From: Minisyncoccota bacterium
GTDB taxonomy: Bacteria; Patescibacteriota; Minisyncoccia; Phycocordibacterales; DASSSU01
Assembly (NCBI GenBank): GCA_035708305.1
Contig: DASSSU010000029.1
Location: forward strand, 576-64,575
Reading direction: 5' to 3'
DNA: 64,000 bases
In this document: piece after piece, positions 1 through 63,920 of the stretch
Layout of the letters: each line of letters opens with the position of its first letter
Numbering within the stretch: the stretch's first letter is position 1
Program-made: the position numbers and the translations under genes
Notes under the pieces: model-generated
The model's database searches: none
What the model saw: only the letters and a program-made list of their open reading frames with translations
Told to the model about the DNA's origin: nothing

Positions 1-75
1 GGCGTGTGTGGAAGTCCGTCTGATCTGCTGAGAGAGGCCTTTGGGTTCTTTGTCTCCACCGACTTGCCGTGCTCT

Positions 76-110
76 TGACTTTTACGCAGGAAAAAATACT
101 ATATTCCTGA
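76..110 (+). promoter_or_regulatory. Candidate sigma70-like promoter (TTGACT ~16 nt TACTAT) upstream of the rplJ leader
   Basis: Hexamers read directly from sequence; it sits about 250 nt upstream of rplJ, and the leader contains hairpins. Confidence 0.3.
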
Positions 111-304
111 AGCTGCGTAGAAAGCAGGTTCCAATTTTGCTCGCGAGCTTGCGAGTGAACTGCAAAATTGAGAATCCGCCTCAGGCGGATCAGGAGAATC
201 TATCGAGGTAGATCAGTAGATCAATTTTGAGAAATTGGAATAAACCCTGCCGAGTAGGTCGATCTTCTTTTTTGCCCGTTTCTTTTTTGGAAATGGCAAA
301 ATCG

Positions 305-335
305 TGGCTTTTACCAGAAGCCATTTTTTTATGGC
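305..335 (+). promoter_or_regulatory. rplJ leader hairpin(s) followed by a T7 run; candidate attenuator with two mutually exclusive stems (tggctt/aagcca versus gccat/atggc)
   Basis: Inverted repeats tggcttttaccagaagcca and gccatttttttatggc share the segment gcca, about 25 nt upstream of the rplJ ATG. Confidence 0.4.
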
Positions 336-354
336 TGAATTCTCTTAAAACAAT

Positions 355-846
355 ATGGCAATTACCAGAGAAAAAAAAGAAGCAATTTCCAAGAAGCTTT
401 CTTCAATTGCAAAAAATTCTGATTCGATTGTTTTTGCAAACTTTCACGGTCTGAGCGTGGGAGCAACAACGAACCTTCGCCAGAGTCTTCGCGAAAACGG
501 CGTTTCGTATTATGTCGCCAAAAAGTCGCTCATCAAAAAAGCGTTTGATGCAGAAAACTTCAAGGGCGAGATGCCAGAACTTGAAGGCGAGATTGCAGTT
601 GCTTGGAGTGAGAATGATGCACTGGCACCTTCCCGAGAGATTTTCAACTTCTCTAAGAAACACAAAAAAACTTTTGCACTCGTTGGCGGTGTGTACGAAG
701 GAGAGTACAAAAGCAAAGAGATCATGACCGAAATCGCCTCGATTCCATCAATTGAAGTATTACGCGGAATGTTCGTGAACGTGATCAATTCTCCGATTCA
801 ACGCATGGCGATCGCGCTCGGTCAGATTGCAGAAAAGAAAGCATAA
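355..846 (+). CDS. rplJ: 50S ribosomal protein L10
   Basis: 163-aa ORF with a typical L10 sequence, located immediately upstream of L7/L12. Confidence 0.85.
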   Translation: MAITREKKEAISKKLSSIAKNSDSIVFANFHGLSVGATTNLRQSLRENGVSYYVAKKSLIKKAFDAENFKGEMPELEGEIAVAWSENDALAPSREIFNFSKKHKKTFALVGGVYEGEYKSKEIMTEIASIPSIEVLRGMFVNVINSPIQRMAIALGQIAEKKA

Positions 847-897
847 ATTACTTTCTACTACTAACTACTAACTATTTACTACTAATTACTTACTAAC

Positions 898-1386
898 ATG
901 GCAGAAGAAACAAAAACAAATGAAGAAGTAGCCGCATCTGCTCCTGAAACGGCAACCGAAGAGGCGAAAGAAGAAGTGAAAGCAGAAGCAGCTTCCGAAA
1001 CAGAAGAAATAGAAGTTCCGGCAAAGTTCAAAGAGATTGTGGAAAAAATCGAAGGAATGTCCGTGCTTGAACTCAACGAACTCGTGAAAGTATTCGAGAA
1101 GAAATTCGGCGTTTCTGCAACGGCTGTTGCAGCAGGTCCTGCAGCGGGTGGAGCTGGAGAAGAAGCAGAGGAAAAATCTTCTTTTGACGTTGAACTTACC
1201 GCAGCAGGTGATCAGAAGATCCAGGTGATCAAGGCGGTAAAGACGGCGCTTGGACTCGGACTCAAAGAAGCAAAAGACCTGGTTGAAGCCGCACCAGCCG
1301 TTCTGAAGGAGGGCGTGGCAAAAGCCGAAGCAGAAGAACTCAAAGCAGCAATTGAGGCAGCAGGAGGAAAAGTTACTCTCAAATAG
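898..1386 (+). CDS. rplL: 50S ribosomal protein L7/L12
   Basis: The N-terminal dimerisation region, an Ala/Glu-rich hinge and the conserved C-terminal domain ([20 protein letters not shown]...) are all present. Confidence 0.9.
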
Positions 1387-1411
1387 TCTCTTTTTCTTGA
1401 AAGAACCTCAA

Positions 1412-1444
1412 GAAAAACCTCTTTTATCGGGGTTTTTCTTTTTG
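1412..1444 (+). terminator. AU-rich hairpin plus T-run downstream of rplL
   Basis: Stem gaaaaacc/ggtttttc followed by tttttctttttg. Confidence 0.3.
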
Positions 1445-1461
1445 AGGAGAGCTATGATAAA

Positions 1462-2085
1462 ATGGCGTTCATGGAAATACTAGGAAAATTGCTTGGAAGC
1501 GTCTCGCGAGTAAAGATCATGCGTCTTTTTTTGTTTCATCCGCAGAAAGTTTTTTCTTATGAGGATGTGAAAAAAAGAACCAGGGTTACGCCTGCCACAT
1601 TTCGGAAGGAAATCAATCTCCTTTTAAAGGTGGGATTTTTGGAACAAAAAGAAATCCCGGCGGACGTTTTGTTGTCGGACGGGAAGAAGGTGCTCGCACG
1701 AAAGCCGAAAGTTGGTCTGAAGCTCTCGCCTGATTTTCCTTTTGCGGATCCATTTCGAACCATCCTTATCAATGCCGAGACGCTCAAGAAAGAAACGATC
1801 GCCAAGAGTCTTGAAGGGGTGGGAAAGCTCAAGCTCGTGATCCTCTCCGGAATTTTTATTGGCCGCGATGACAGCCGTGTGGATCTTTTTGTGGTGGGAA
1901 GCAAGATCAACAAAAAAGCATTTGAAAATTACATGCGTATCTTGGAATCGGAAATCGGAAAAGAACTGGCGTACTCGGTTTTGGAGACGGATGAATTTGC
2001 ATACCGCTACCAAGTGCACGACAAACTGGTCCGAGACGTCCTTGACTATCCGCACGAGAAGCTGCTTGACCGGCTCAACGTTTAG
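1462..2085 (+). CDS. Hypothetical protein, possibly a winged-helix-like N-terminus plus a nucleotidyltransferase-like fold; no confident family assignment
   Basis: 207-aa ORF with clean coding periodicity, lying between rplL and the rRNA promoter. Confidence 0.5.
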   Translation: MAFMEILGKLLGSVSRVKIMRLFLFHPQKVFSYEDVKKRTRVTPATFRKEINLLLKVGFLEQKEIPADVLLSDGKKVLARKPKVGLKLSPDFPFADPFRTILINAETLKKETIAKSLEGVGKLKLVILSGIFIGRDDSRVDLFVVGSKINKKAFENYMRILESEIGKELAYSVLETDEFAYRYQVHDKLVRDVLDYPHEKLLDRLNV

Positions 2086-2132
2086 CCGCTTTTTCTTCCT
2101 TCGGGCTTTCAAAAATGGAGAAGCTCAAAAAC

Positions 2133-2160
2133 TTGACCGATTCTATTTTTCCTTTATACT
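2133..2160 (+). promoter_or_regulatory. Candidate rRNA operon promoter (TTGACC, 16-nt spacer, TATACT)
   Basis: Near-consensus hexamers about 170 nt upstream of the mature 16S 5' end. Confidence 0.45.
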
Positions 2161-2199
2161 GTAGCCACACCTTGAAAAAGGGTGTTTTCTTTCAAGGGA

Positions 2200-2217
2200 A
2201 GATCTTTGAAAATTGAA
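2200..2217 (+). promoter_or_regulatory. boxA-like antitermination motif in the 16S leader (agatctttgaaaattgaa)
   Basis: It resembles the Bacillus-type rrn boxA tgttctttgaaaact. A related gatctttg motif recurs at 4801-4815 in the spacer leader of 23S. Confidence 0.35.
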
Positions 2218-2329
2218 TAGGTGAATAGAAATAGAAGTGTAATAACAAGAGAAGGAGAGGCGTTCAGGTTTTTCTTTCTTTTGTTCCGTCGATGTTCGGG
2301 ATGTTTCATTGAAATGTTTCGAACAAAAA

Positions 2330-3897
<1,568 letters not shown>

Positions 3898-4711
3898 AAA
3901 TGGACACATTCTTCTTGCAAGGAAGAATTAAAACGATCGATCCATTCTGCATTTGTAGAGTGAGAGACATGGTTCAGTCTCAAAAAGAGCCGGGCATTCG
4001 GGAGAGACCGAAAACCAGACGGAACAAAAGAAAGAGAAACTTTGAAAGGCTATTCACATTCAATTTTCAAAATATGATTAACAAAAACCGCTTCGGCGGT
4101 TTTTGTTTTGGTGCAATTTCCTTTAAATGTTATAATGCCACCGGGTTTTCTTCAATGGATATTTTGAGAAGGATATTTGAAAGTGAACGGTGGTCATCTT
4201 GCTTATGGAGTTTCGATTTCGTTCGTGATTGGCACGATGCTCATGCTCATTCTTCTTGGTCGGTAGAAATCTTTTGGAGGGGAAAATGTTCCAGCGATTT
4301 TTTCGCTCTCAGTTTTTCCGTTCGTGTGTTCGGAATCCTGTTGAAATGATCACGTCAATTTTGCTGTGGTTGGCAGTGGTTTTTGTCGTTTATTTTTACC
4401 ACCATTGGTAAAAAATGGCCGCGAGATGTTTTCTCGCGGCCTTTCGTTTGACCTTTACTGGTGTTCTGGCCTTCTTTTGGAAGAATGTTTTCTCGATTTT
4501 TTTCCTCGAGGGTCTTGTGAGGGATTCCTTTTCTCTTTTTCTTTTTCCCGTTTATCACGATGTCTCTGAGACATGCATGGAGCTCCTAAAATGAAAAGTT
4601 CGCACTCTCTCACTGAGAGGCTCTTCTTTTGAGAGAACCCTGAGGAATTCTAATGAAAATCAGGTTAAAATACAAGTGAGAGCCCTCAGTGATGGCATTA
4701 TGAAGAAAAAC

Positions 4712-4739
4712 TTGACGGAATTTTTCTTTTCTATATAAT
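4712..4739 (+). promoter_or_regulatory. Near-consensus promoter inside the 16S-23S spacer (TTGACG, 16 nt, TATAAT)
   Basis: Read directly from sequence, about 240 nt upstream of the 23S 5' end; it is followed by a gatctttg boxA-like motif and a hairpin-T9 at 4814-4840. Confidence 0.45.
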
Positions 4740-4977
4740 GCTAAATGTTCTGAATATGAAAAAGAAAGAAAGCTTTCCAAGGTGATACAGTCCACGCAGG
4801 TGGATCTTTGTGTATCGCCTCAGGCGATTTTTTTTTAGAAAACTGCCCGAACGGATCGAACGTTGAAAACTGAATTCTGCCACGGCAAAAATTACCTTTC
4901 GGGGTCTTTTCATTTGCCGGAGGCAGGCAGGTAAAAAATATTGTAAGAAAATTTTGTGGTTTTTTGACTTCCTAATG

Positions 4978-7948
<2,971 letters not shown>

Positions 7949-8045
7949 ATTAGGACGTCAGGACGCCACAAATTTTCTTATTTTATTTCCTGCAAATTCA
8001 GTTTTCATACACAAAACAAGCAGCACGAACAAGTATTCAGTATTT

Positions 8046-8156
8046 TGTTCTGGTGGTTTGGCGAAGGGGTCACACCCGATCCCATTCCGAACTCGGAAGT
8101 TAAGCCCTTCAGCGCCGATGGTAGTCGTAAGGCAAGAGTAGGTCGCCGCCAGAACA
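8046..8156 (+). rRNA. rrf: 5S ribosomal RNA
   Basis: Helix 1 is formed by gttctggtgg and cgccgccagaac; conserved CCGAACTCGGAAGTTAAGC and GCCGATGGTAGT blocks are present. Confidence 0.8.
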
Positions 8157-8185
8157 AAATACTGAATCCAAGAACGTACTCCATC

Positions 8186-8212
8186 AAGCAAGCCTCACGG
8201 CTTGTTTTTTTG
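8186..8212 (+). terminator. Rho-independent terminator ending the rRNA operon
   Basis: Stem caagcc tcac ggcttg plus a T7 run. Confidence 0.6.
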
Positions 8213-12111: not shown

Positions 12112-13002
12112 ATGGAAACATCAAGAAAAATGAGGGTGATTACGCACAGCGGGCCTTTTCATACGGACGATGTATTTGCTGTCGCCTCGCTTGACCTGTT
12201 GCTTCAGGGGGATTATGAGTTAGTCCGAACTCGTGATCCGGAAGTGATCAAAACTGGAGATTTTGTTTTGGATGTCGGCGGGGTGTACGATCCGGAAAAA
12301 AATCTTTTTGATCACCATCAGGAAGGCGGCGCCGGAGAGCGGGATGGGATCCCGTACTCTTCACTTGGTTTAGTGTGGAAAAAATACGGGGCGGAAATTT
12401 GCCGTTCTCCAGAGGTAGCAAGAGAAATAGAAGACAAGCTTGTGTTGGCAACTGATGCGACGGATTGCGGGGTGGACATCATTCCCAAAAACGACCTCGG
12501 GGTGCACGTTCCACATATGTACGATGTGATCAAATCTTTCCGCCCTTCATGGAAAGAAGAGAAAAGTTTCGATGAAGGTTTTCAGGAAGCGCTTGCTTTT
12601 GCTAAGGGGTATCTTACGCGGAGTATTTTCTTGGCTCATACACTTTTGGAATCAAAAGAGAAAGTTTTGAGAGCGTATGAACAAGCTTCGGATAAACGGA
12701 TCGTGGTTTTTGAAAAATTTTACCCAAGCTTGGATGCACTCGAGAATTTTCCAGAAGTACTATATGTGGTGTATCCGTATTCTGGGAACCAGCATTGGGT
12801 TGCCCGGGCGTTTCGTAGCGAACGAGACAGTTTCAGGAATCGCAAAGATTTTCCAAAAGCATGGGCAGGAAAGACGAACGAAGAGCTTGCAAAAATTTCC
12901 GGTGTTTCAGACGCGATGTTTTGCCACAATGGTGTTTGGATCTGCTCGGCACGATCGAAGGAGGGGGCAATAGCACTGGCTACCCTCGCCGCTGACGCGT
13001 AA
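12112..13002 (+). CDS. MYG1/UPF0160 family metal-dependent hydrolase
   Basis: Conserved THSGPFHTDDVFA and DHHQ motifs. Confidence 0.75.
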   Translation: METSRKMRVITHSGPFHTDDVFAVASLDLLLQGDYELVRTRDPEVIKTGDFVLDVGGVYDPEKNLFDHHQEGGAGERDGIPYSSLGLVWKKYGAEICRSPEVAREIEDKLVLATDATDCGVDIIPKNDLGVHVPHMYDVIKSFRPSWKEEKSFDEGFQEALAFAKGYLTRSIFLAHTLLESKEKVLRAYEQASDKRIVVFEKFYPSLDALENFPEVLYVVYPYSGNQHWVARAFRSERDSFRNRKDFPKAWAGKTNEELAKISGVSDAMFCHNGVWICSARSKEGAIALATLAADA

Positions 13003-13116
13003 AAACGTTCATTTCTGGCACATTTCATCTTTTATTTTTGAATTCATCTGCCTGAGGCAGACTCACTTCGCAATTCCAAAAATAAACGCGAACTGCACTC
13101 AGAAATGAACGTTTTT
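13001..13116 (+). repeat. Family-A nested palindromic element (17-bp perfect outer inverted repeat, with an inner tctgcctgaggcaga hairpin core) starting in the stop codon of the MYG1 gene
   Basis: Outer arms aaaaacgttcatttctg and cagaaatgaacgttttt. A homologous empty copy lies at 46272-46341 on the minus strand. The 24-nt core ttcatctgcctgaggcagactcac is repeated at 29869-29892. Confidence 0.7.
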
Positions 13117-13267
13117 ATTTTTCAATACACTGGATGGGTTTTTTGGGAAAAACGTATTTTTACAAAAGGCACTGTCCCAAGGATGCTCGTCTGGTCTTGT
13201 GTCTTTTGTGAAGAAGTTTCTGGGAGGATATGGCTCTTTTTTGTAAATTGAGATAAGATATTTTCAA

Positions 13268-29823: not shown

Positions 29824-29934
29824 CTTCCAGCTTTGGCGAATTTCTTTGTCAGAACGTGAATTTTCCTGTTCATCTGCCTGAGGCAGACTCACAGCCAAAT
29901 TCACGTTCTTCCTCAAACTTCATCCAAATCTGAA
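29824..29934 (+). repeat. Family-C framed palindromic element downstream of nrdA (conserved frame, with a 12-bp inverted-repeat insert carrying the Family-A core)
   Basis: Frame cttccagctttggcgaatttctttgt ... cttcatccaaatctgaaa. The insert gaacgtgaattt ... ttcatctgcctgaggcagactcac ... aaattcacgttc shares its core with the element at 13043-13066. Confidence 0.7.
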
Positions 29935-46087: not shown

Positions 46088-46271
46088 AATTTTAACGAGA
46101 CTACCATCCGGACCAGTCCATATTCTTCCCAAATCTTGAAAGGAATTTTGTTTACGAAAAATCCTGTTTTCTTTCAATCTAGCGCTCCAAGGCCGCTCGG
46201 CCGGTCTTACTGTCTTGAAGGAAAACAGGATTTCCCGCTTACGAACAAACTACTTCCAGTCTCTTGCAAAG

Positions 46272-53951: not shown

Positions 53952-54776
53952 TTGTTTTTCTTTTTTGGAAATGGTATTACAGAATTTTCCGGACAAGAAA
54001 TTTTCATGAATACCACGAATTCTTCCTCGACTCCCGTTTATCTGCAGCCGGCCTCGCTGGGGCTAGCGGTCATTCTTTTATATTTTGCGCACACTTATGA
54101 CGAGTCTTACATTCTTTCAAAAAATTCTCCACATCTTGCCTACGCAGCACAGCAGGTAGAGACGCAGGCACAGGGAGATATTGGGACATCATCTGATTTT
54201 TCACAGGCTCCTGGTGGAGCGAGTATTCTTCCGGGTTCGGATGCGGAGAAGTCGAATATTCAGCTCGCACAAGCATGGTCAGGTTTAGCACCGCGAGTAG
54301 AATCCAGCTCTTCTACAATCAATGCCGCAGGGAATGACATGGAGGCAGTGGAAATAAAAAAACAAGAAGCAAAAGCACTGAACAGTTCACCAATCTCTCC
54401 CTCCACCTCTTCCGAATCTTCGTCTGCCGCACCTTCCAGTAATTTTTCTCATTCTTCTGTTTCACAATCTGAAACGGAAGCCTTGGCGGCACTCAACCCA
54501 AAGCTTCGCCCGGTCTGTGCGTGTGAAAGTGCAGGAAGGTGGACGGGAACACCGCGGCAGTTTGACGCAAATGGCGATCCGCTCATGAATTTTGGCGGAA
54601 CGGGTGATGTAGGCATGTGTCAGATCAATGTTCGGTATCACGAAGAGGATGCCAAAGCACTTGGGTACGACCTCTACACATCCATGGGAAATGTGCTTTT
54701 CGCAAATTACCTTTTTTCCCTTCAAGGGTATCAGCCGTGGCTTGCGAGTGAAGCATGCTGGAGAAACGCACTGTAA
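53952..54776 (+). CDS. Membrane-anchored transglycosylase-like (Rpf-type) domain protein, paralog 2
   Basis: Same C-terminal CACES...W...VGMCQIN...PW..SEACW domain as 50388-51191; the start may be the second ATG at 54006. Confidence 0.55.
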   Translation: MFFFFGNGITEFSGQEIFMNTTNSSSTPVYLQPASLGLAVILLYFAHTYDESYILSKNSPHLAYAAQQVETQAQGDIGTSSDFSQAPGGASILPGSDAEKSNIQLAQAWSGLAPRVESSSSTINAAGNDMEAVEIKKQEAKALNSSPISPSTSSESSSAAPSSNFSHSSVSQSETEALAALNPKLRPVCACESAGRWTGTPRQFDANGDPLMNFGGTGDVGMCQINVRYHEEDAKALGYDLYTSMGNVLFANYLFSLQGYQPWLASEACWRNAL

Positions 54777-61128: not shown

Positions 61129-61503
61129 GTGAGTGCTGTTTTAACATTGAATAATCTGAGAATCTTGTCCTCGTGTTGTTCTGGAAGACGCGTGGAAAGC
61201 AGGATTCTTACCCGAATATCAATATTTTATCGGATTTTTCTGAAGTTTTCCTGAAATTTTGTAAGAATTCCGTGTTTTTTCCGTCTCATGCGGTAGCGCA
61301 AAAGGGCGATCTTAATGCAGGAAAAACAGTCTGCCGTAAGATTACTCATATTTTGCCGGAGGTTTTTCAAAAAATCTCCCGAGTTCTTTCACAGTTTTTA
61401 GTTTCTAATCTTGTTCAGCAGCGAGAGGAATCTCTAAATGGCTTACCCATTTACTCGCGATATCAATGTTCTTGATCGCGGCTCAAATTCTTTGCGCATT
61501 GCC

Positions 61504-62622
61504 ATGGTCGCTCCTTTGGTAGAGAGCGTGCCGCCGAAGTATTATGGCGGAACGGAGCGAGTCATGGATTGGCTCATAAAAGCGCTTCTTCAAATGGGGC
61601 ATCGTATCACGCTTTTTGCGAGCGGTGATTCTGTTACTGGCGCAGAGCTTCATGCTTGTGTACCGAAAAATCTTCGCGAGATGTGGAAAGAAATTCCGGA
61701 TGATCAGAAACCGGAAGATTACGTCGCGTGGCAAAAGCGCTACACCAAGAAAATGCTTGACGATGTGTACCTCCTCGCCATGAATGGCGAGTTTGATGTT
61801 GTTCATTTAAATGTGGACGACCCATATGCGTTTGAGCTTTTCTCAGACACAAATCTTCCGTGCGCGGTTGTTATGACCATGCATGGTCGGCAGGATTATA
61901 AGTGGCTCCACGCTGCATACAGGAAGCATCCGCTTCCATTGGTATCAATTTCCAATAATCAGCGTGAGTTAATGGTTCCAAACGCCAACTGGGCAGGAAC
62001 CGTATACCATGGTTTGCCGGAGGATTTGTATCAAGTAGAAAATGCGGAGCAAGGTGAGTACTTGCTTTTCATTGGACGCACCAGTCCCGAAAAAGGACTG
62101 AAACAGGCGATAGAGATTGCCGTAAAGGCAAACATGGAGTTGAAGATTGTTGCGAAGATTGATCCAAGTGAGGAAGATTACTTTTGGAAGGAAATCCAAC
62201 CGCTAATTTTCGAAAACCATTCCCTGGTTAAATTCTGTGGTGAGAAGGGAGATGCTGAAAAGCAGGAACTTCTCTCTGGCGCACGGGCGCTTCTTTTCCC
62301 GATTTGTTGGCCCGAACCGTTTGGCCTTGTGATGATCGAAGCCATGGCTACCGGCCGGCCGGTGATTGCTTACCGGCATGGTTCTGTGCCGGAGGTTCTC
62401 CAACATGGAGAAACCGGATTTATCATCAAGGATGACGCGGAAGCTGCGGCTTTGTCGGTTGAGATGGCAAAGCACCTCAAACCCCAAAACATCCGTCGGA
62501 TTTTTAAAGATCGATTTTCCAATGTTCGTATGGCGGAAGGGTACGTGGAGATTTACAAAAAATTAATCTCCGAGAACCAAGTCGCAAGAAAGCCAAAAGC
62601 TTTCACCAAACTGGCAGGATAG
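61504..62622 (+). CDS. Glycosyltransferase family 4, tandem paralog 1
   Basis: MVAPLVESVPP..YGGTERV N-terminus and EPFGLVMIEAMATGRPV C-terminal GT-B motif; an in-frame upstream ATG at 61438 is less likely. Confidence 0.75.
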   Translation: MVAPLVESVPPKYYGGTERVMDWLIKALLQMGHRITLFASGDSVTGAELHACVPKNLREMWKEIPDDQKPEDYVAWQKRYTKKMLDDVYLLAMNGEFDVVHLNVDDPYAFELFSDTNLPCAVVMTMHGRQDYKWLHAAYRKHPLPLVSISNNQRELMVPNANWAGTVYHGLPEDLYQVENAEQGEYLLFIGRTSPEKGLKQAIEIAVKANMELKIVAKIDPSEEDYFWKEIQPLIFENHSLVKFCGEKGDAEKQELLSGARALLFPICWPEPFGLVMIEAMATGRPVIAYRHGSVPEVLQHGETGFIIKDDAEAAALSVEMAKHLKPQNIRRIFKDRFSNVRMAEGYVEIYKKLISENQVARKPKAFTKLAG

Positions 62623-62659
62623 CTGAACTGTAAAAACAAAACTGAAATAAATGTAATCA

Positions 62660-62696
62660 AAAGGACCTCTTTCGCGGGGTCCTTTCTTTATTTTTT
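62660..62696 (+). terminator. Weak hairpin plus a T-run between the GT4 paralogs
   Basis: aggacc ... ggtcct plus ttctttatttttt. Confidence 0.35.
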
Positions 62697-62707
62697 AAAT
62701 AAAAGCT

Positions 62708-62735
62708 TTTCCAATTTACTTTGATATGGTATAAT
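62708..62735 (+). promoter_or_regulatory. Candidate promoter with an extended -10 (TGgTATAAT) for GT4 paralog 2
   Basis: The tataat at 62730-62735 is preceded by tgg; the track ORF ATG at 62721 lies inside this promoter, so the real start is 62784. Confidence 0.35.
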
Positions 62736-62783
62736 CCACCTATCAATTTGTTCAATCACAAAAATATCAAGCTCCGTATCGCC

Positions 62784-63920
62784 ATGGTTGCTCCTTTGGT
62801 AGAGAGCGTACCGCCGCAGCTTTATGGCGGAACTGAGCGGTTTGTGGCCTGGCTGGTAAATGCTCTTGTTGCCATGGGGCACGATGTGACTCTCTTTGCG
62901 AGCGGAGATTCACAAACTTCCGCCCGTCTTCACAAGTGTTCGCCGAAAAACCTTCGTCGTATGTACGAAGATCTCAAGGAAAAGCCTGCTGACTATATCG
63001 CATGGCAGAAACAAGCGACTCATGCGATGCTTCAGGAAGTCTTTAAGCACGTCATGAACGGCGAGTTTGATATTGTTCACTTAAATGTGGATGATCCCGA
63101 GGCTTTCAGACTCTTTTCTTCAAAAGAACTTCCATGTCCGGTGGTGATGACCATGCACGGACGCTTGGATCTTGAAGGATTGCGGGCAGCGTATCAGGAA
63201 CATCCGCTTCCGTTGGTTTCCATTTCGAACGATCAGCGGACGCATTTTAAAATGTCCAACGCCAACTGGGCGGGCACGGTATACCACGGCCTACCGGAAG
63301 ATCTCTATCAGCTGGAAAACGAAACACTGGGGGACTACTTGCTTTTCATCGGAAGAGTGAGCAGGGAAAAAGGATTGGAGAGTGCGATTCGGATTGCTGG
63401 TGAAGCGCACATTCCTCTGAAAATCATTGCCAAGATCGACCCGACGGATCGGGAGTATTATCGGGAGAAAATACATCCTCTCATTTTCGGCAATTCGAAT
63501 ATCGAGTTTGTTGGTGAGAAAAACGACCAAGAAAAACAGAAGTACTTGAACAGAGCACGTGCACTTATCTTTCCGATCAACTGGCCGGAACCGTTTGGCC
63601 TGGTGATGATCGAAGCCATGGCTACCGGCCGGCCGGTAGTCGCCTTTGGGTGTGGTTCTGTTCCAGAAGTATTGAAGCACGGTGAGACTGGCTTTGTGGT
63701 AGAAAAAGAAAATTACGAAGACAAAATCCGTGAGGCGATTCACTTTGTAAATGCCTGCAAAAATCTTTCTCCTCAAAAGATCCGCAAAATTTTTCTCAGA
63801 GATTTCACGGCAAAAAAAATGGCGGAAGGATACGTGGAGATTTATCAAAAACTTTGGCAAGAACGCAGAGCAGGACAAAAAACGCAGAACTTGTGGATGA
63901 AAAAAGGAAAAATTGTATAA
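62784..63920 (+). CDS. Glycosyltransferase family 4, tandem paralog 2
   Basis: It has the same architecture as paralog 1, and stretches of near-identical nucleotide sequence (for example ccgtttggcctggtgatgatcgaagccatggctaccggccggccgg). Confidence 0.75.
   Translation: MVAPLVESVPPQLYGGTERFVAWLVNALVAMGHDVTLFASGDSQTSARLHKCSPKNLRRMYEDLKEKPADYIAWQKQATHAMLQEVFKHVMNGEFDIVHLNVDDPEAFRLFSSKELPCPVVMTMHGRLDLEGLRAAYQEHPLPLVSISNDQRTHFKMSNANWAGTVYHGLPEDLYQLENETLGDYLLFIGRVSREKGLESAIRIAGEAHIPLKIIAKIDPTDREYYREKIHPLIFGNSNIEFVGEKNDQEKQKYLNRARALIFPINWPEPFGLVMIEAMATGRPVVAFGCGSVPEVLKHGETGFVVEKENYEDKIREAIHFVNACKNLSPQKIRKIFLRDFTAKKMAEGYVEIYQKLWQERRAGQKTQNLWMKKGKIV

Follow-up and report, generated by a model that had tools for sequence, protein, structure and literature searches.

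The leader recognized by the L10(L12)n complex is one of three ribosomal protein leaders that are widely distributed across bacterial phyla (PMC3616713). The determinants of L10(L12)4 binding in this leader include a kink-turn that mimics helix H42 of 23S rRNA and is found in all members of the family, a bulged C in the non-canonical stem, which occurs in more than 90% of L10 leader examples and is missing in some lineages, and, above the kink-turn, a hairpin with a UAA element whose two adenosines are unpaired, where an extension hairpin of varying length is possible (PMC3616713). The unpaired adenosines have a role in L10(L12)4 binding (PMC4538822). In Firmicutes, Cyanobacteria and Fusobacteria, an intrinsic terminator is located downstream of L10 leaders (PMC3616713). 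Here, we analyzed a 64-kb stretch of DNA from contig DASSSU010000029.1 (the whole stretch is referred to below as the window) of an uncultured Candidatus Paceibacterota bacterium (Patescibacteria/Candidate Phyla Radiation, CPR), and compared the region upstream of its rplJ and rplL genes with the leaders described above. An earlier note had reported an exact 17-nt copy of a 23S rRNA hairpin in this region, together with attenuator-like hairpins, and had suggested ribosomal protein autoregulation by rRNA mimicry. The suggestion of autoregulation held, as the region contains an H42-like core and a terminator, but the 17-mer was not confirmed as the mimic, as its 23S counterpart is the tip of helix H45. 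We consider it quite probable that positions 109-354 are the 5' leader of the rplJ-rplL operon and function as a divergent, expanded L10(L12)n autoregulatory attenuator, in which the 17-mer is not the recognition element. The locus and the known L10(L12)4 autoregulatory leader, with its transcription attenuator, are most probably homologs.

The part of the leader that resembles H42 is split into two half-sites on the + strand, which flank an insertion bearing the 17-mer. The 5' half starts with the 5' strand of a kink-turn-like internal loop (GU-AGAAAG, 117-124), which matches AAGACAG of L10 leaders and AGACAG of 23S H42, and continues into the 5' strand of helix P1 (GCAGG, 124-128), which in folding pairs with positions 246-250. 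The 3' half (246-256) consists of the 3' strand of P1 (CCUGC, 246-250) and of the 3' strand of the kink-turn-like loop (CGAG-UA), so that AGAAAG-CAGG (119-128) as a whole pairs with CCTG-CCGAG (246-254). G120-A121 on the 5' side and G252-A253 on the 3' side flank the helix 124-128/246-250, which corresponds to a kink-turn at the level of sequence. Immediately before the 3' strand of P1, folding leaves UAAAC (241-245) unpaired, and this segment holds the two-adenosine/UAA element of L10(L12)4 sites. In the local fold, U241-A242-A243-A244 were unpaired between P1 and its extension stem, P1b, and AUAAG or UAA was present at the equivalent place in relatives. The leader motif also resembles H42 of the same organism, which reads AGACAG-UGAGG...CUCA-UUUAG.

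The composite motif, defined as AGA[C/A]AG, 4 nt, up to 150 nt, a complementary 4 nt and CCGAG, occurred once in both strands of the 64 kb, in the rplJ leader, against 0.21 occurrences expected from shuffled sequence. When the half-sites were scored separately by position-weight matrices, the 5' half ranked about 50th and the 3' half among the top five on the + strand. As each half-site alone ranks unremarkably, only the paired composite motif is specific. Taken together, these features suggest that the H42-like core is likely an rRNA mimic and a putative L10-L12 binding element.

We compared the leader with those of 160 Patescibacteria rplJ loci (L001-L160) obtained from scans of genome and metagenome contigs. 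About 120 of the 160 leaders carry GACAG-N4...N4'-CCGAGG at a distance of 75-200 nt upstream of the start codon, and their signature consists of AAGACAG or AUGACAG on the 5' side, a helix of 4-5 bp, an apical region, the complementary strand and CCGAGG. In a set of 32 relatives, P1 was fully paired (100%), three of its five pairs showed double changes, and its score was not reached by any of 500 shuffles. The Rfam model RF00557, with the consensus ACCGAAGACAG-cAGG...CCUg-CCGAGG and, downstream of it, a terminator with a U-run, aligned over its full length to the leader of one relative (L060) with 38.1 bits, which is below the gathering score of 44, and this was the only RF00557 match in the 13 relatives' loci scanned with Rfam at E<=1.

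Some relatives differ in the H42 sequence itself. The 3' strand of 23S H42 contains UCGAG in 47 relatives, and deviates from it in the window (UUUAG, 6187-6200), in L011 (UCUAG), in L078 (CUCAG) and in L097 (UUCAG). The leaders of L011 and L078 have CUUAG and UUUAG, respectively, instead of CCGAG. Judging from these substitutions, some lineages appear to show co-evolution of rRNA H42 with its mimic in the mRNA. The window does not follow this pattern, as its rRNA has UUUAG and its leader keeps CCGAG.

The sequence between the P1 half-sites of the window leader is unusually long. The apical region measures 117 nt, as compared with 11-46 nt in most relatives, and its lineage-specific expansion (129-240, + strand) folds at -37.4 kcal/mol. 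The 9-bp P1b stem (129-137/232-240) extends P1, and above it there are a hairpin at 139-156 and a stem at 163-171/221-229; inside the latter are the 17-mer hairpin and, at about 199-220, a third hairpin. Large apical insertions are also present in L007 (118 nt), L024 (130 nt), L064/L144/L145 (133 nt) and L105 (145 nt); they are independent and mutually unrelated in sequence. The base of the expansion is similar to that in L064/L144/L145, with covariation: GUAGGUCCCGAUUUUGC...AUCGGAAUAAACCCUACCGAG in these relatives corresponds to GCAGGUUCCAAUUUUGC...AUUGGAAUAAACCCUGCCGAG in the window, and CCGAU/AUCGG at the base of the L144/L064 insertion to CCAAU/AUUGG, followed by GGAAUAAACCCU. At the position of the 17-mer, L064/L144/L145 have an unrelated, longer hairpin. 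The possibility that 129-240 is a recent insertion of a mobile element was rejected, as the window contains no other copy of it and distant relatives have its basal stem too, with covariation. As to the leaders of Patescibacteria in general, we distinguished at least three architectural classes (examples are L002:9832-9911, L013:9867-9914 and L043:2807-2862). Class A leaders have a short apical loop (11-31 nt), the frame GUACGGACC...UCCGUAC and an inserted hairpin that separates CCGAGG from GGUCGA; class B leaders have a conserved apical unit of 43 nt with two hairpins and the frame CAGGCUC...GAGCC-hairpin-GGCCUG-UUUUAU; in a compact class, CCGAGGUCGA is fused.

The expression platform lies downstream of the H42 mimic, and hairpin X, a possible antiterminator and the terminator would overlap in it. 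Hairpin X (UUUUGCC...GGCAAAA, 270-301, + strand, -11.7 kcal/mol) overlaps with its 3' strand the candidate antiterminator pairing of GAAAUGGC (290-297) with GCCAUUUU (320-327), which spans 290-327 on the + strand and is predicted from thermodynamics at -10.5 kcal/mol; this pairing is mutually exclusive with both hairpin X and the terminator. The intrinsic-terminator-like structure (304-330, + strand) consists of a hairpin of 9 pairs at 304-324 (-9.3 kcal/mol) and a U-run at 325-330 (seven T's, 324-330, in DNA), which ends 25 nt before the rplJ start codon. As there is no room for a promoter between the terminator and rplJ, every rplJL transcript must read through it. An alternative hairpin (AGCCAU-U6-AUGGCU, 319-336, + strand, -7.0 kcal/mol) shares positions 319-324 with the terminator. 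Two overlapping hairpins followed by a T-run had been described here previously; the overlap of 304-324 and 319-336 is real, but the T-run does not follow both of them, since the latter hairpin holds it as its loop. Hairpins at positions analogous to that of hairpin X were found in L011 and L078, and the three-part layout is common to both. A convincing antiterminator overlapping the L10-binding hairpin, as in B. subtilis, was not found in the leader, where inspection by eye gave only complementarities of 4-5 bp. A weak basal pairing of GAAG (109-112) with CUUC (264-267), followed by U268-273, may also matter; several relatives have UUUUAU directly 3' of the basal helix of the binding domain. 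As a separate observation, an 18-nt T-rich segment of hairpin X (TTTCTTTTTTGGAAATGG, 279-296) exactly matches the 5' region of another gene (53957-53974); the match is probably coincidental, owing to low complexity.

By analogy with B. subtilis (PMC4538822), L10-L12 present in excess over free 23S rRNA would bind the H42 mimic and favor the formation of the terminator, lowering rplJL transcription. In the absence of bound L10-L12, an alternative pairing, for which 290-297/320-327 is a candidate, would let the polymerase read through.

The 17-mer (ATCCGCCTCAGGCGGAT) is present in two exact copies, at 174-190 in the leader and at 6250-6266 inside the 23S rRNA gene, both on the + strand, and nowhere else in the window; this identity was confirmed, with no match in 100 shuffles. 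In each copy (ATCCGCC-TCA-GGCGGAT), seven perfect base pairs enclose a UCA triloop (-10.0 kcal/mol). To place the 23S copy, we aligned 6100-6420 to the Rfam model of bacterial large-subunit (LSU) rRNA, and converted the positions to E. coli numbering by means of the GGCUUAGAAGCAGCC landmark (A1067), with the LSU model being 41 positions ahead of E. coli. The copy is the apex of a hairpin at model positions 1207-1226, corresponding to about 1166-1185 in E. coli, that is, of helix H45 in domain II (stem at about 6245-6271). Helices H42-H44, which constitute the L10/L11 binding domain (5' strand AGACAG-UGAGG, 3' strand CUCA-UUUAG), occupy 6112-6206 on the + strand, and the copy begins 44 nt after their end. 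Thus, the previous assignment of the copy to domain II was correct, but its proximity to the GTPase-associated centre is true in primary sequence only, and its position is outside the L10/L11 binding region.

The tip of H45 is a variable structure. In relatives, UUCG and other loops are found there, and the stems below them are unrelated in sequence; a version of 58 nt occurs in L153, and L049 has the H45 base in common with the window (GGAUGUGAU...AUUGCGU) and a different tip. H45 of the window, with its 27 nt as compared with 26-28 nt in the clade, is unusual only in the sequence of its tip. The eukaryotic expansion segment ES15L sits at H45, and this location fits a solvent-exposed, permissive tip. 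The variation of the tip among relatives argues against a conserved protein contact there; a literature search for proteins that contact 23S H45 gave only papers on h45 of 16S rRNA. In the 25 relatives for which both sequences were available, the longest word common to the leader and its own H45/23S was 9-12 nt, which is the background, and no relative shared a segment between leader and H45. The 17-mer was absent from all available leaders, so the duplication was not found in relatives, among which the nearest L10 protein in the matches listed is 64% identical (genome contigs, metagenome contigs and 5.8 billion proteins); contigs with the exact L10 protein were identical copies only. Because of the position of its copy at the H45 tip, the lack of leader-H45 sharing in the 25 relatives and the variability of the tip, we read the 17-mer as a lineage-specific feature in a variable part of the leader RNA and not as a recognition element. 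In particular, it is unlikely to be a mimic of an L10 or L11 site. Its possible role as a minus-strand terminator was rejected, as there is no minus-strand gene to its right.

The 17-mer hairpins turned out to be members of a larger family, in line with the previous observation that the triloop hairpin recurs in the 23S leader (4814-4840) and in the Family-A core. The sequence GCCTCAGGC occurs five times in the window (at 178, 4817, 6254, 13050 on the minus strand and 29876 on the minus strand), as compared with 0.37 occurrences expected, and all five sites extend to one palindrome, ATC(Y)GCC-TSA-GGC(R)GAT, in which the flanks TC(N)...(N')GA are common to all copies. In the leader (174-190) and in H45 (6250-6266) it takes the form ATC-C-GCCTCAGGC-G-GAT. 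In the 16S-23S spacer it is one bp shorter (ATC-GCCTCAGGC-GAT, 4814-4828, + strand), and is terminator-like, being followed by a run of nine T's (4828-4836) that includes the last T of the stem. The remaining two members (TCTGCC-TGA-GGCAGA, 13047-13061 and 29873-29887; ATC-T-GCCTGAGGC-A-GA) are the cores of the 43-nt repeat D12 ('Family-A'), the copies of which (13034-13076 and 29860-29902) are 81% identical and lie in intergenic regions, each just after a + strand ORF (open reading frame). These repeats are nested in longer inverted repeats (AAAAACGTTCATTTCTG...CAGAAATGAACGTTTTT with a T-rich run, and GAACGTGAATTT...AAATTCACGTTC; 12990-13125 and 29850-29905) and have the appearance of long hairpin elements, either terminator-like or mobile. 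In the window, the core has a density of 0.078 per kb, ten times that in 1.7 Mb of related genomes (0.008 per kb), where it is almost never a hairpin. Therefore, the 17-nt identity most likely reflects a genome-specific family of stable hairpins fixed at permissive places, and in the simplest reading these places are two variable helix tips, a terminator-like site in the spacer and two intergenic elements. The family could have spread by copying, conversion or convergence; its copies would settle at permissive sites, with copying or conversion perhaps being the means of spread.

Several observations weigh against the L10-responsive attenuator, and most of them would be accounted for if the leader were a long structured 5' untranslated region with a leaky or constitutive terminator and only a vestigial likeness to the L10 site, which we regard as unlikely. 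The comparison with the Rfam L10 leader model that had been proposed for the locus gave no match of RF00557 on 1-420 at E<=10, and the Rfam scan of this region at the same threshold gave only two chance-level matches (Fwd6 3'UTR and suhB). The covariance model R1, which we built from 32 class A relatives, also missed the leader, both with default filters and with filters off on 1-8200, and its best match in the window (46196-46238, minus strand, 6.7 bits) was noise. In the core itself, AGAAAG has A122 in place of the consensus AGACAG, and so the bulged C is lost, CCGAGU replaces the conserved CCGAGG, and H42 of the same organism departs from the leader motif, with UUUAG where the leader has CCGAG, making the mimicry imperfect. 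The minimum-free-energy fold of the whole naked leader forms the terminator and not P1, and the antiterminator pairing 290-297/320-327 is a thermodynamic suggestion without covariation support. However, R1 finds unseen class A leaders at 44-67 bits and splits the homologous L064/L144/L145 leaders, with their 133-nt insertion, into half-hits of 14.2 and 10.2 bits. An apical insertion of more than 100 nt is therefore enough to defeat the model, and the failure of covariance models to detect the window leader is most likely due to the insertion. The leader thus does not reach the score of the family model, while most of the features that define RF00557 and the wider L10 leader family of Fu et al. 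2013 are present in it. Against a vestigial site, both critical adenosines and the two GA dinucleotides are kept, the window has the composite motif only once and at the expected place, and the architecture is common to relatives. The same GAAAG variant is found in the otherwise canonical leaders of L046 and L119. Moreover, since the operon is essential and highly expressed, the presence of a terminator 25 nt upstream of it implies that read-through is regulated.

As to the 17-mer, its exact identity with the H45 tip is far beyond chance, so that some specific cause must exist, and this also weighs against our reading. One such cause would be a function of the 17-mer as a mimic of the H45 tip: a ribosomal protein or an assembly or processing factor that recognizes the hairpin on the ribosome or pre-ribosome would also bind the rplJ leader, and perhaps the near-identical hairpin of the spacer, and would tie rplJL expression or rRNA processing to the amount of 23S available. 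The identity extends over the perfect stem and no further, as it would if selection acted on the hairpin itself. Of the five family members, three belong to transcripts related to the ribosome, and the transcribed strand of each of these has the UCA loop. The two others, however, are intergenic, and their likely transcribed strand has UGA in the loop. In addition, H45 is not an L10/L11 site, its tip is not conserved even in a relative with the same H45 base, 0 of 25 relatives share the hairpin between leader and H45, and the leaders of the most rRNA-like relatives, L011 and L078, whose H42 is most like that of the window, have apical regions of about 20 nt without such a hairpin. Functional mimicry of H45 is thus very unlikely in our opinion. 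The same low credence is given to AUCCGCC-UCA-GGCGGAU as a dedicated recognition site common to the rplJ leader, the 16S-23S spacer and the H45 tip; if it were one, its reader, an RNA-binding protein or a nuclease specific to the lineage, would connect the synthesis of L10/L12 with rRNA processing and with finished 50S subunits, and a second, independent layer of rRNA mimicry would be stacked on the classical L10 leader. It could also be supposed that two GC-rich triloop hairpins, which evolved independently and have no common origin or function, became identical by coincidence. A perfect hairpin has only about 10 free positions, the genome favors the GCC-TSA-GGC core, so that only ATCC/GGAT must agree (an estimated 1 in 256, roughly, per pair), and the flanks outside the 17 nt differ. 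Yet the window contains only seven perfect triloop hairpins with stems of at least 7 bp, and two of them are identical, for which we estimate a chance of roughly 2e-5 (~21 pairs x 4^-10). In 650 control comparisons in Patescibacteria, the longest word common to a leader and the 23S of another organism never exceeded 14 nt, and the TC...GA extension in all five copies of the core itself needs explaining. We therefore find coincidence quite unlikely, and retain the genome-specific hairpin family as the origin of the 17-nt identity.

The leader precedes rplJ (ribosomal protein L10, 163 aa, 355-846, + strand; PF00466) and rplL (ribosomal protein L7/L12, 162 aa, 898-1386, + strand; PF16320 and PF00542). 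It was reproduced at 100% identity in two independent Logan assemblies, which rules out an assembly artefact. The gene upstream of the leader region (109-354) is a small unrelated ORF, and therefore rplJL has its own promoter. A promoter-like site (TTGACT, 16-nt spacer, TACTAT; 75-102, + strand) predicts a transcript start near 109, just before the L10 motif, as in relatives, which have a TATAGT-type -10 box a few nt 5' of their L10 motif. No Shine-Dalgarno sequence is visible 5' of rplJ or rplL, and the 3' end of 16S rRNA (3886-3899), which reads GGAUUUAUUCCAAA as compared with GGAUCACCUCCUUA in bacteria normally, is without the canonical CCUCC anti-Shine-Dalgarno.

Further downstream of rplL there are an ORF (1462-2085) and the genes of 16S (2331-3899), 23S (4975-7952) and 5S rRNA (8049-8154). 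In many relatives, the 23S gene begins 2-3.5 kb downstream of rplJL without 16S between them (L013, L016, L028, L035, L007 and others), and many of their contigs end near that 23S gene; the window instead has 16S between rplJL and 23S. The linkage of rplJL with rRNA genes seems to be conserved in the Patescibacteria relatives. The 16S-23S spacer of the window (3900-4974) has 1,076 nt, with no tRNA among Rfam matches and no convincing ORF, and contains perfect hairpins at 4080-4107 (12-bp stem), 4393-4414 and 4417-4441; the 16S and 23S genes may be transcribed separately. Close to the other end of the window (61495-63695), two direct repeats that have diverged (72% identity over 197 nt and 77% over 141 nt) and have a spacing of ~1.28 kb suggest tandem paralogous genes.

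The placement of this locus among L10 leaders would extend the L10(L12)n leader into the Candidate Phyla Radiation. A full-text search of a paper library found no paper linking L10 leaders with this group, which is absence of evidence only. Leaders of Patescibacteria have apical domains of 11 to about 145 nt, and most of them are missed by the current Rfam model or fall below its score. Lineages in which the leader appears to change together with the organism's own H42 provide direct comparative evidence for mimicry. For annotation, the lesson is that exact identity between an rRNA and a leader is by itself no evidence of a regulatory mimic; here, it pointed to the wrong helix. A genome-specific hairpin of 15-17 nt that is found in an mRNA leader, an rRNA spacer, the tip of an rRNA helix and intergenic elements is a small curiosity in its own right.

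The hairpin family can be compared with REP/BIME-like repeats, as in both cases several near-identical, short, GC-rich, imperfect palindromes are present in one genome, mostly in noncoding DNA, some of them at the 3' ends of genes or beside T-runs, and are lineage-specific. In contrast to such repeats, only five copies were seen in the 64 kb of one contig, the unit of 15-17 nt is much shorter, and one copy is in a mature rRNA helix and another in a regulatory leader. The two copies of the 17-mer also resemble variable regions and expansion segments of rRNA in that both are at helix tips varying in length and sequence, even though H45 of the window has a length typical of its clade.

The closest described counterpart of the leader itself is RF00557, represented by the rplJL leader of B. 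subtilis (Yakhnin et al. 2015, PMC4538822; Iben & Draper 2008). Both are located directly 5' of rplJ-rplL, both have an AGAxAG-helix...helix-CCGAG core resembling 23S H42, with the unpaired UAA/two adenosines on the 3' side of the top hairpin, and in both an intrinsic terminator with a U-run lies 5' of rplJ and overlaps alternative hairpins. The window leader differs in staying below the model threshold, in having A for the bulged C, and in having a 117-nt expansion with three hairpins in place of a short apical hairpin. Its candidate antiterminator is overlapped by hairpin X, an element distinct from the protein-binding hairpin; there is no evident leader peptide, and its host is a CPR bacterium. 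The rplJ leader of E. coli acts post-transcriptionally and has no terminator directly 5' of rplJ (PMC3616713), whereas the window leader has a terminator and no visible Shine-Dalgarno sequence to be sequestered. What the window leader and that of E. coli would have in common is the L10(L12)4 complex that is bound, the principle of H42 kink-turn mimicry and the operon that is controlled.

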